NCBI GenBank assembly: GCA_020051075.1
Contig: JAGVJP010000012.1
Span: 9,575 to 73,574, forward strand
Direction of reading: 5' to 3'
Origin: Parachlamydiales bacterium
GTDB taxonomy: Bacteria > Chlamydiota > Chlamydiia > Chlamydiales > Parachlamydiaceae
Length of the DNA: 64,000 nt
Each line of letters opens with the position of its first letter. Positions within the stretch are counted from its first letter, which is position 1. Below, one piece after another: positions 34,681-37,518 of this stretch. Made by a program: the position numbers and the translations under genes. Under the pieces are notes generated by a model. The model was not told the origin of the DNA. It did not search any database and saw only the letters and a program-made list of their open reading frames with translations.

Positions 34681-37518
34681 ATGAGCATCAGTTCTTCTAG
34701 TGGTTCTCCTGGTAATGTTACTCCAATCCCAAGTCAAGAGGCCACTTCCAGTTCAATTCCTGCAGCAGAACCGATTCTTGAACAAGTCCTCACTACTGAG
34801 GAATCTCAAGCGCTGCCTGGTTCTTTATTAAGAGGGGATTATACTGCTTCCTCAGTGACTGTCAATGATCCTCCCTCTCCGATTCCAGCGTCCATCTCTT
34901 CTGTATTATCCTCAAGCTCGAGTTCCAGCTCTGCTGAGCGCTCACGTTCAAGTTCAAGCCTTTCAGGACATCTTAGTCCTCTCCCGCCGAATTCAGAAGT
35001 CTCCAGTATCTCGAATAAATTAAGCCTACAGATTGCGGGTAATAAGCTGTTTCGAGATTTAAAAGAACTGTTCAATTCGATAAAGAGCAACTTATCAAAA
35101 AAAGAAGACGTTGAAAAAATTATTCAGGCAAGGAATGAAGCCTTTATTCAAATTTGCAGAGAAGACCCAGAGCTCGGTGCCAAATTAGAAGAAAGTCGTC
35201 AGATAATTACAGAAAAAGAGAACGTAATCAGAGATATCCGGATGCGATTACCCGTCAAACAAGCTGTAAAATCAGCTTATACCCAGGAAATTCAATCGGT
35301 TGACTCCGAAGAGCTTTCAAAGGGGATCGAAGAAGATGGTAAAGCCTTAGTAATTAAAGAAAAAGATCTAACCCTAATACGTGAAACAAGAGCGAAATAC
35401 ACACCAACGATCCATGACTTAAGAGAAAAAAGTAAAATCGACCCTGCTCCAAATGATGCTGCTGACATAGAAAAACTTAAAGGAGAGATGAAAAAATTAA
35501 CGGACAAAGAAATGAAGTTAGTTGCCACCGTTAGCGATCTCAGGCAACGAATAGAAGCGAGAAAGGCAATACTTGATCATGGACAAAGATATGCGAATGA
35601 TGAAATCAAAATTCAAGAGAAGCAAGCTCAATTTGACAAGTTAACCAGCCCATCAAAAGGCAAAGCATTCTTAAGCATATCTATAAAAAAACGACGAGAG
35701 CGCAAGAATTTGGCTATAGAAATTCGCAATTTAAAAGCATCTCAACAAGAACACCTCCGTGCCATTGCAGGTTACCAAGGGGTATTAGAAACTCGAATTT
35801 TGCAACAGAACGAAGTGGGCGCACTGCTCCGAGAGATCGAGATAATACAAGCAGACATCAATTTACAAATAAATGCATTAGAGAACTACGAATTAGAAAG
35901 AGTTCGTAAGGTGAATCCTGATAGCATCTCTTTTACAGAGCTCAGAAATGAGAGAGCACTCTGCAACAGAGCAATATTAGAAGCAGCTGATAAAATGGAA
36001 AATCTTAGCAGTTGGGTAGAAGCGCTCCCTTTAGATATCAAACAACAAATGATACATGATTTGGCTCAAGAGTTTATCAACATTGGAAAATGGCCGCCAA
36101 GACCTTCAAATCCCTTTTCCGAACTTCGAACGGCCATCGTTCAAGAAATGGTGAACATTGCATTATCTCGCCGTCCCCCTGAATATTTCGGTGAGACCGG
36201 TATCGCAGGAACAGTTGCAACAACAGGGATCTATATCATTAGGGTTGATGTCGATGTTCCTGGACCAGGTGGGAAGATAGAGAAAGAAACGAGAATTCTT
36301 GGAGGATTCAAACCAAATGATGAAGCTCCGGGTGGAAGATTTGCATTGAAACCATTGGAAGAAGTGCAGCCAGGACTCCCTTCAGAAACTGCCGACATTC
36401 GTCAAAATCTTGTGAGTAAATTAGGTGGAGCGGGGACGATGGATAGCGTGTTAGTGACAGCGCAACATCCGCATTTTAACTATCGTCCTGCTGGTTCAGA
36501 AATAGCAGTAGACCCGACGCCGAAAGAGGGGATTTTAATCGAATGGATGACAGCTATTCCAGGCCGACGTCCTCATCTGGTTGAATTTATACATACTGAA
36601 AAATTGGATGACGAGATCTATTCTCGTATTTATGAAGATATTGCGTTCGCAAATTGGGACCCGAATGAAGGGAATCAACTGATCTCAAAGTCCTCGGCAG
36701 GGAGATTAGGAATCCTGTATTCCTGGAAGCAGTTTGATTTAGATAAGACGTTTCCTGCCGGTTTTGTGTCGATGTCAAATGATCCGGTTTGGGTTCAATC
36801 ACCGCTGGCAAATAAACCGATGCCTCTTGCACTTAAGATGAGGATAAGTACTCGAGATGTTGAGAAAGAGATTGAACAGGCGAGCCATTTTTGGAATAAG
36901 GAAATAGACCGTAAACAAGCACGGATTAATCAAAGTGATGCTACTCCTGAGGATAAAGAGGCTAGGATAACAGCTCTAGAAACATGTCGTTGGAGCGAAG
37001 CTCATGCCAATGTCTTAAGAGCGCGCGATACGCTTTTAAAAGTGGCTGTCGATCTCGATGCGACCCCTCTTGAAATTTTTGAGATGACTAAAGAGATAAC
37101 TATGGAATATCGATATTCGTTCAACTTAATTCAACTTTCAGAATTTCTACGAGCTCGAAGAGTTGAATTCCCATTGGGTTTGATAAGAGAGCTTACTACA
37201 GATTTACATTGTTTTTTCTTAAATCAAGAAGAACAACAGCCCTTAGACTTGCCTAATAGGCTGGCTGCGGAATACATTGTAGCGAAGGCTAAAGCCATTT
37301 TGATAGTTGACAACGACTTGCAGAATGCACGTGGCTTGACCCTTGAGGAACGAAAACAAGAAGTCGCTAAGCTCACTCAAGAGTTTCTGGCTAAGCAGCT
37401 GCACAAACAAATCGAATTTCTGCGCTCTCAACGGCTTTCACACCCCCCAATTTCGTCATCTTCATCTTCTTCATCCTCATCTTCGTCTTCATCGCAGCTC
37501 CCCAACCCACCGCCTTAA
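34681..37518 (+). CDS. large coiled-coil / poly-Ser protein with central type II PI 4-kinase-like domain (putative secreted effector)
   Basis: ATG with RBS at 34681 (ORF track starts at GTG 34654). Kinase-like core is ORF-track aa ~512-740 (nt ~36187-36873): GGFKPNDEAPGG, HPHFNY, KEGILIEW, ANWDPNEGNQLISK, FDLDKTFP, VWVQSPLANKPMP. Ser tracts at both ends. Confidence 0.65.
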   Translation: MSISSSSGSPGNVTPIPSQEATSSSIPAAEPILEQVLTTEESQALPGSLLRGDYTASSVTVNDPPSPIPASISSVLSSSSSSSSAERSRSSSSLSGHLSPLPPNSEVSSISNKLSLQIAGNKLFRDLKELFNSIKSNLSKKEDVEKIIQARNEAFIQICREDPELGAKLEESRQIITEKENVIRDIRMRLPVKQAVKSAYTQEIQSVDSEELSKGIEEDGKALVIKEKDLTLIRETRAKYTPTIHDLREKSKIDPAPNDAADIEKLKGEMKKLTDKEMKLVATVSDLRQRIEARKAILDHGQRYANDEIKIQEKQAQFDKLTSPSKGKAFLSISIKKRRERKNLAIEIRNLKASQQEHLRAIAGYQGVLETRILQQNEVGALLREIEIIQADINLQINALENYELERVRKVNPDSISFTELRNERALCNRAILEAADKMENLSSWVEALPLDIKQQMIHDLAQEFINIGKWPPRPSNPFSELRTAIVQEMVNIALSRRPPEYFGETGIAGTVATTGIYIIRVDVDVPGPGGKIEKETRILGGFKPNDEAPGGRFALKPLEEVQPGLPSETADIRQNLVSKLGGAGTMDSVLVTAQHPHFNYRPAGSEIAVDPTPKEGILIEWMTAIPGRRPHLVEFIHTEKLDDEIYSRIYEDIAFANWDPNEGNQLISKSSAGRLGILYSWKQFDLDKTFPAGFVSMSNDPVWVQSPLANKPMPLALKMRISTRDVEKEIEQASHFWNKEIDRKQARINQSDATPEDKEARITALETCRWSEAHANVLRARDTLLKVAVDLDATPLEIFEMTKEITMEYRYSFNLIQLSEFLRARRVEFPLGLIRELTTDLHCFFLNQEEQQPLDLPNRLAAEYIVAKAKAILIVDNDLQNARGLTLEERKQEVAKLTQEFLAKQLHKQIEFLRSQRLSHPPISSSSSSSSSSSSSSQLPNPPP

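Follow-up and report, generated by a model that had tools for sequence, protein, structure and literature searches.

The orphan gene, its relatives and its LRR partner

A 64,000-nucleotide stretch of a Parachlamydiales contig (JAGVJP010000012.1; the whole stretch is called the window below) carries, at positions 34681-37518 of the forward strand, a gene for an orphan protein whose central part had been likened, in an earlier note on this DNA, to type II phosphatidylinositol 4-kinases (PI4KII). The gene begins with an ATG and has an AGGAG ribosome-binding site 7 nucleotides (nt) upstream. Because this element lies at the proper distance from the ATG at 34681, the product is 945 amino acids (aa) long; starting from an in-frame GTG further upstream (34654), it would comprise 954 aa. 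All parts of the gene described below are on the + strand.

The first 110 residues (34681-35010) are 33% Ser and 12% Pro and probably disordered. They include an 8-Ser tract (aa 77-84, 34909-34932) and a motif, LLR[SG]D.T, common to the homologues. By its composition, this segment is a candidate secretion-signal region, possibly of the type III kind. It is followed by a helical region rich in E, K, L, I and R (aa 111-430, 35011-35970) with partial heptad character, whose sequence and length are poorly conserved among homologues. The conserved core comes next. Its landmarks are two predicted helices ahead of a β-hairpin (aa 451-468 and 481-497, 36031-36171; AlphaFold DSSP, predicted local distance difference test score (pLDDT) 57-83); a Gly-containing loop and strand, IAGTVATTGIYIIRVDVDV (36202-36258), candidate G-loop and β2; the block RILGGFKPNDEAPGG (36292-36336), hereafter the FKP block, with K544 as putative ATP-binding Lys; an acidic/amide cluster of D-x4-N-x-D-x4-N form, EDIAFANWDPNEGNQLI (36634-36684), candidate catalytic loop, with a predicted helix (aa 644-655) ahead of it; and QFDLDKTFPAGF (36730-36765), which may provide a metal-binding Asp equivalent to that of DFG or, alternatively, represent a DxD motif. 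The protein ends with a helical domain (aa 720-920, 36838-37440), 70% identical to that of the relative P0001 (see below), and a 14-Ser tract in mixed TCN codons (aa 925-938, 37453-37494).

No hydrophobic N-terminus or transmembrane-like segment is found in the 945-aa protein (maximum 19-residue Kyte-Doolittle mean, 1.19), in agreement with the earlier note, which had seen no signal peptide. The Ser tracts use mixed codons, as the same note had said of the C-terminal one; their lengths, given there as 9 and 15, are each one residue too high. Its "long coiled coils" are borne out insofar as aa 111-430 are helical; a crude heptad scan flags just three segments (258-307, 419-449 and 767-795), and weak coiled-coil Pfam matches occur in the homologues. 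Downstream from the gene, 28 nt past the stop codon, lies a 31-nt inverted repeat (37546-37637; 87% complementary, 30-nt loop) that could act as a terminator or have a regulatory role as a hairpin.

Among 1.84 billion representatives, an exhaustive HMMER search identified five relatives (P0001-P0005), 39-72% identical to the query core. No others emerged from word-indexed searches, a scan of GTDB genomes or a scan of JGI metagenomes. The six sequences that make up the family all lie on uncultured chlamydia-like contigs, apart from the label attached to P0001. This partial protein (K2Z81_21340), the closest homologue at 70% identity, is encoded on a 1.3-kb contig filed under a "Cyanobacteria bacterium" metagenome-assembled genome (MAG). 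As every other member with genomic context is chlamydial, the short contig has probably been mis-binned.

Conservation is high in the core and in the C-terminal helical domain and poor in the N-terminal half. With 28-70% identity otherwise, all six members retain K544, D653, N658, D660, N665 and D686 without change. Also invariant are, within the FKP block, G541, F543, P545, D547, E548, A549, P550, G551 and G552; further on, K615 and G617; in and just ahead of the acidic/amide cluster, R649, E652, A655, F656, W659, P661, N662, G664 and Q666; and further downstream, W682, Q684, D688, K689, P692, G694, F695, W704 and P708. Hence the catalytic Lys and Asp equivalents that the earlier note wanted checked are kept throughout the homologues (K544, D660, N665 and D686 in 6/6). 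As judged from the alignment, the invariant Lys, Asp and Asn residues lie so densely that they resemble an active site. The pattern bears on the idea that the protein is neither enzyme nor effector and has a structural role in the bacterium or its inclusion, as a helical or coiled-coil protein whose core is a module for protein interactions. Helical or low-complexity sequence does make up about half of it, its neighbour encodes a leucine-rich-repeat (LRR) protein, itself a protein-interaction module, and no catalytic family was detected. However, invariant Asp, Asn, Lys and Glu residues crowded together, as in this core, typify active sites rather than interaction surfaces, and the helical N-terminal half is the part least conserved; we consider a purely structural role very unlikely.

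The neighbouring gene (33772-34596, +), which adjoins the orphan gene, encodes an LRR protein of the FBXL/RNI type (274 aa) in which no F-box was detected. It is 42% identical to the product of a gene (226-1188 of contig L084) located upstream of P0003. Related LRR genes are found beside P0005 (contig L001, 11009-12010, -) and P0004 (contig L082, 2772-3260, -), with BLASTP values of 6e-14 and 4e-08, respectively. Thus, an LRR gene of the same family adjoins the orphan gene in every locus for which flanking sequence is available: in the window and in L084 it lies upstream on the same strand, in L001 and L082 downstream on the opposite one. The site differs, being between pbp2 and tRNA-Gly in the window and between ytgD and dxr in L001, a contig whose chlamydial origin is apparent from a TLC transporter and a YtgC-repressor fusion. 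Since adjacency is held while the conserved junctions differ between genomes, the two genes form a cassette.

In the window, the cassette occupies the ancestral pbp2-tRNA-Gly-rpsB junction, marked by a tRNA-Gly(TCC) gene (37807-37877, +). Of 80 related genomes, 54 have pbp2 upstream of rpsB, often at a distance of 250-560 bp and with tRNA-Gly(TCC) in between; in the window, the LRR gene and the orphan gene fill 4.3 kb between pbp2 and the tRNA gene. No homologue of either gene is present at the 80 related loci. The junction as such is variable: when window 33675-38016 is set beside L002-L081, pbp2-rpsB gaps of about 250 bp to 5.8 kb are seen in the related chlamydiae. In Chlamydiaceae, ompA occupies the pbp2/rpsB junction. 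Horizontal transfer was considered on grounds of composition and rejected: the GC content of the gene (0.423) equals that of the window (0.428), and flanking direct repeats were not found. The window itself has a chlamydial content: it encodes Pmp repeats, a large PBP2, DUF818 and a SWI/SNF helicase, and its ribosomal-protein region shows the order rpsB-tsf-pyrH. Its Tsf protein is at most 68% identical to those of Parachlamydiaceae MAGs in a collection of 185,579 species genomes, so that the DNA comes from an undescribed lineage.

Resemblance of the core to type II phosphatidylinositol 4-kinases

The resemblance proposed in the earlier note was built on six short strings. All six are present, in frame and in the order given, and together span 36301-36825: GGFKPNDEAPGG (aa 541-552), AQHPHFNY (594-601), KEGILIEW (615-622), ANWDPNEGNQLIS (657-669), FDLDKTFP (685-692) and VWVQSPLANKPMP (703-715). 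To compare the core with PI4KII, we used a PI4K2A reference sequence (identical to the 4HND and 4PLA sequences over residues 77-468) and two template alignments. One derives from a homologue search that yielded vertebrate PI4K2A only; the other, more diverse, was recovered from metagenome and metatranscriptome contigs and has 29 members, with identities as low as 40%.

The FKP block gives the highest score and the one significant similarity. With the vertebrate template, which is unbiased, hhalign aligns RILGGFKPNDEAPGG with RIIAVFKPKNEEPYG, the PI4K2A segment that bears the catalytic Lys152, at a P value of 1.3e-3; with the diverse template P is 5.8e-5 (Prob 66%). The block reads FKP[ND]DEAPGG in all six members, and the window protein has 8 of 15 residues in common with PI4K2A residues 146-160. 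Its ungapped score is 24.9 bits as compared to 13.8 for the 95th percentile of shuffles. The PI4KII match scores above 150 column shuffles (z about 5); against the family, PI4K2A scores above 240 real chlamydial proteins, and the PI4KII profile scores above 7 real family profiles. In unfiltered HMMER searches with a PI4KII hidden Markov model (HMM), all six members rank over 673 background open reading frames, while in the reverse search PI4KII sequences occupy almost all top ranks. The HMMER alignment of P0004 extends over 53 model positions, covering the preceding helix, the SSGGVY loop and the FKP strand. This block is the most conserved one in both families, and its FKPxDExPxG strand is specifically PI4KII-like, not PI3K- or PI4KIII-like. 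PI4K2A, PI4K2B and yeast Lsb6 (PF00454; structures 4HND, 4PLA and 4WTV) share with the family a β3 strand of the form R-I-[IL]-x-x-F-K-P-x-[ND]-E-x-P-x-G.

Outside this block, the picture changes. When the FKP block was masked in both profiles, the PI4KII score fell inside the range of unrelated families, both with hhalign defaults (19.7 versus an unrelated-family maximum of 21.7) and with relaxed gaps (66.9 versus 68.5). Split comparisons gave hhalign P values of 0.028 (N-terminal) and 0.1 (C-terminal). PI4KII sub-HMMs lacking the FKP block (residues 100-143, 164-455, 164-269, 270-369, which hold the catalytic and activation loops, and 370-455) rank family members in mid-background, anywhere from 7th to 295th of 676. 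Collinearity of objectively chosen conserved blocks was not significant (P 0.05 to 0.78), and relaxed-gap alignment fails to put D660 on D308 of PI4K2A. Chaining of invariant residues, again under masking of the FKP block, joins K615/G617 to K256/G258 and D653/N658/D660/N665 to D301/N306/D308/N313 (P about 0.02-0.03), at a score that is also reached by one of seven unrelated families. Only the FKP block, then, has statistically supported similarity to PI4KII. The pairs picked by chaining favour a kinase reading of the core; the other results outside the block, and the equal score of an unrelated family, weigh against it, and so do two properties of the FKP match itself. The diverse template had been fished with the pattern FKPK[ND]EEPYG, which over-weights the block (masking served as the control), and pairwise P values of 1e-3 to 1e-5 would fail a database-wide correction.

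Part of the earlier proposal is accordingly upheld, in that the FKP block exceeds all controls; the other blocks sit inside the null distribution once it is masked. This is also a ground for supposing that the resemblance is a chance or convergent match of 15-20 residues and that the core has some other, undescribed fold or activity, for example that of a nucleotide- or metal-dependent transferase using the invariant D686-x-D688 and the acidic/amide cluster. Such a possibility deserves to be taken seriously, even if we would not back it. It gains from the silence of the profile and structure databases (see below), from the non-significant collinearity and from the look of QFDLDKTFPAGF, which by eye is about as DxD-like as it is IDNGLAFP-like. 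Moreover, pairwise P values of 1e-3 to 1e-5 are expected by chance somewhere across many families. On the other hand, the matching block is the most conserved one on both sides and bears the PI4KII catalytic Lys; it lies on a predicted β-hairpin behind a Gly-containing loop; the invariant Lys ... D-x4-N ... D set follows the kinase order; and the reciprocal HMM ranking is clean. A glycosyltransferase or other family went likewise undetected.

A different alternative is that the protein is a true type II phosphatidylinositol (PI) 4-kinase homologue, making phosphatidylinositol 4-phosphate (PI4P) from host PI on the inclusion membrane. Several features speak in its favour, besides the PI4KII-type strand. 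The blocks singled out in the earlier note are mostly reciprocal-best ungapped partners (5-9 bits). At the G-loop site, P0004 and P0005 have SSGGVY, as against the invariant GSSGSYF of PI4KII. Furthermore, host PI4KIIα is recruited to C. trachomatis inclusions, where PI4P matters (PMC7763869). As to the G-loop in the family as a whole, the window protein has TTGIY, G516 and Y518 are kept in all five members that cover the site, and the pre-FKP sub-HMM gives no enrichment by itself. Other points of likeness are a helix ahead of the Gly/Ser-rich loop and the elements D-x4-N-x-D-x4-N-x-L-I and a later Asp followed by F-P, which succeed one another in the same order in both families. The PI4KII α3 helix aligns weakly, with both hhalign and HMMER, to the helices of aa 451-497.

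Nevertheless, closer inspection makes true homology quite unlikely. Against the PI4KII catalytic loop (LDYxxRNTDRGxDNW[LM][IV]), only D653, N658, D660, N665, L667 and I668 coincide, and six of ten near-invariant positions are replaced in the family: R305, T307, R309, G310, D312 and W314, all invariant in the 29 PI4KII sequences, are lost, R309 giving way to Pro. The catalytic-loop 19-mer is a reciprocal-best partner with 5.7 bits only. Likewise, of the activation loop (AAIDNGLAFPxKHP, D346), QFDLDKTFPAGF retains only D686, F691 and P692 as coincident residues; N347, G348, L349, K354, H355 and P356 are not conserved in the family, and the profile of these two loops is without signal. In the proposed PI pocket, E157 corresponds to Ala549 and L349 to Lys689, while R181 and L184 sit in an insertion absent here. 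That insertion (I1, residues 157-190), which carries the CCPCC palmitoylation site, is missing; from the FKP block to the next conserved helix there are about 19 Cys-free residues, APGGRFALKPLEEVQPGLP, instead. The RK-rich and I3 insertions are also much shorter. The "similar spacing" of the earlier note proved loose: the Lys-to-Asp distance is 116 residues here and 156 in PI4K2A, the Asp-to-Asp distance 26 and 38. Because of these differences, PI4KII spacing is compatible only if insertions I1-I3 are absent or shortened. The C-terminal helix HANVLRARDTLLKVAVDLDATPLEIFEM (37069-37152, in the region of aa 797-824) is reciprocal-best with the last PI4KIIα helices and collinear with the FKP block, an alignment that is not significant alone (P 0.1-0.14). 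PF00454 remains unmatched. On this sequence evidence, membership in the PI4KII family is not supported. The two groups differ further in that no profile-level match extends beyond the β3 block, that PI4KII are eukaryotic whereas the orphan protein is bacterial, and that here the domain has about 430 aa of Ser/Pro-rich and helical sequence on its N-terminal side and about 200 helical residues on the other.

Interpretation of the conserved core

Database and structure searches did not place the core in any fold. Pfam, including PF00454 and LepB_N, was silent at E<=10, whether queried with the full protein, with each of the six members or with eight fragments, and NCBIfam gave no match for the protein. 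PDB chains, PI4K2A/B and CtkA among them, gave nothing at E<=10 against the family profile. The sole match in PDB sequence searches, interleukin-13 (E 0.03 or worse), was rejected as noise. AlphaFold with a single sequence gave an unusable model (pLDDT 38); with the six-sequence alignment the mean pLDDT rose to 58.9, with values below 50 over aa 546-707 (core alignment 119-280), the putative C-lobe. Foldseek of the latter model found nothing in the PDB at E<=0.001. A TBC RabGAP domain (E = 0.59, TM-score 0.11-0.16), though reminiscent of the GTPase-activating domain of LepB, was dismissed as meaningless. These blanks and the low-confidence C-lobe count against the kinase interpretation developed below, and the match to PI3/PI4-kinase folds implied by the earlier note failed to materialise. 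No other enzyme family, glycosyltransferases included, was detected for the family either. A haloacid dehalogenase (HAD) phosphatase reading of FDLDKT (DxDxT) was discarded on inspection, as T, A or G stands at position 5, the motif comes late in the domain and HAD motifs II-IV are absent. ADP-ribosyltransferase (R-S-ExE), Fic, CX5R phosphatase and Cys/His protease readings were set aside since the invariant residues they require are lacking.

Low confidence notwithstanding, the order of secondary-structure elements predicted by the six-sequence model (mean pLDDT 58.9) is compatible with a bilobal protein-kinase-like (PKL) fold. The model has two helices, a short strand, a loop and two long antiparallel strands ending at K544, and places a helix directly ahead of the N-x-D-x4-N cluster, as in kinase-like folds. 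The helices at aa 451-468 and 481-497 occupy the position of the α2/α3 helical hairpin of PI4KIIα (architecture described in PMC3974213). At the motif level, the PKL set is present in order in 6/6 members: β3 K544, D660-x4-N665 and D686, with spacings of 116 and 26 residues. Family indels fall at loop or insertion positions of PI4KII.

We therefore favour, at a probability of roughly 45%, a lineage-specific secreted, atypical kinase-like enzyme, from an uncultured Parachlamydiales-like chlamydia of the amoeba type, that is not a member of the PI4KII family. The conserved core (about aa 500-720) would most likely be a highly divergent PKL ATP-dependent phosphotransferase. The kinase-like picture draws on five observations: the most conserved blocks of both families coincide and carry the ATP-binding Lys; the FKP block lies on a predicted long β-hairpin that, as in PI4KIIα, comes after a helical hairpin and a Gly-containing loop; the invariant N-x-D-x4-N cluster has a helix directly ahead of it; D660 is followed, 26 residues on, by an invariant Asp; and family indels coincide with PI4KII insertions. 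Together they make a divergent kinase-like domain a coherent, if unproven, proposition.

In such an enzyme, K544 of FKPxDExPxG would be presented to the ATP phosphates by the Gly-containing loop and the β-hairpin. D660 and N665 (NWDPNxGNQ) would act as catalytic base and Mg ligand, and D686 (QxDxDK) as second metal ligand. The substrate could be a lipid or a protein. Chlamydial context, N-terminal composition and the lack of Sec or transmembrane signals suggest that the 945-aa protein is secreted, probably by the type III system, in which case the Ser/Pro-rich N-terminus might carry the secretion signal. The helical regions could serve in oligomerisation or targeting, and the co-inherited LRR protein might be a partner, an adaptor or a regulator. 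An effector-like character, as suggested in the earlier note, appears plausible, and a host target may be envisaged.

PI4KIIα's nearest analogues in structure include H. pylori CtkA (PDB 3AKK), a secreted protein kinase (PMC3974213). Actin-fragmin kinase and Fam20C, like CtkA minimal atypical kinases, are also named there, and CtkA represents a PI4KII-like fold in a bacterial effector that acts on proteins; hence, a PI4KII-like strand does not imply a lipid substrate. Several bacterial PI-kinase effectors are already known, namely Legionella LepB, a PI3P 4-kinase, and the PI 3-kinases OpiA/LegA5/AnkK/Risk1 and MavQ, all of them atypical, of very narrow distribution and hard to detect by sequence (PMC9758233). 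The claim to novelty in the earlier note, which knew of no described PI4KII-type kinase encoded by a bacterium, therefore needs narrowing. LepB, OpiA and MavQ have atypical kinase-like domains inside large helical effectors of vacuolar or intracellular bacteria, as may be the case for the orphan protein; their export is by type IV or type VI secretion, that of chlamydiae by type III. Neither Pfam (LepB_N) nor, for OpiA and MavQ, the PDB-chain searches, to which the comparison is confined for these two, produced a match between the orphan family and these effectors. An FKPxDExP strand is not known as a feature of the LepB, OpiA or MavQ families.

C. trachomatis recruits host PI4KIIα to its inclusion, and for Chlamydiaceae a review describes the hijacking of host kinases only (PMC7763869). 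It is this recruitment that would make a bacterial PI4KII-like enzyme interesting. In a bolder version, the family would be an unrecognised bacterial PI4KII-like branch, delivered to protist hosts along with its LRR partner and either making PI4P or phosphorylating a host protein at the inclusion membrane. This is rather unlikely; if true, it would amount to a bacterial replacement for the host PI4KIIα that pathogenic Chlamydia must recruit. If the core is an active kinase of whatever specificity, it would found a new, extremely narrowly distributed family among atypical effector kinases, and chlamydiae would have an enzyme with a predicted action on host phosphorylation or on phosphoinositide identity. 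Should the resemblance be due to chance, the family would still be of modest interest, as an orphan domain that is conserved and has an evident candidate active site. LRR/F-box/BTB effector-like families are expanded in Parachlamydiaceae (PMC4209131). The LRR partner in the window is of the FBXL/RNI type, massively expanded in amoeba-associated chlamydiae, with the difference that here it is strictly linked to the kinase-like gene. This strict linkage, maintained at different conserved junctions in different genomes, points to a testable two-component effector module.

Other genes of the window

Four further regions of the window deserve mention. A gene at 477-7265 (-) encodes a 2262-aa STAND-type protein in which a methyltransferase domain at the N-terminus is combined with an NB-ARC NTPase and many tetratricopeptide repeats. 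The PBP2-like protein encoded at 30427-33675 (+) has 1082 aa, with a dimerisation domain (aa 55-288) and a transpeptidase domain (aa 812-1027) separated by about 520 residues. The 924-aa product of 19848-22622 (-) combines an N-terminal Hsp70-like ATPase domain with a C-terminal DUF3731 "DnaK-related" domain. Finally, weak matches are seen at 45935-47002 (-) and 47934-48575 (-), one with the C-terminal domain of BclA (E 1.7e-4, short of the Pfam cut-off), another with a carbohydrate-binding domain of CBM9-like type.

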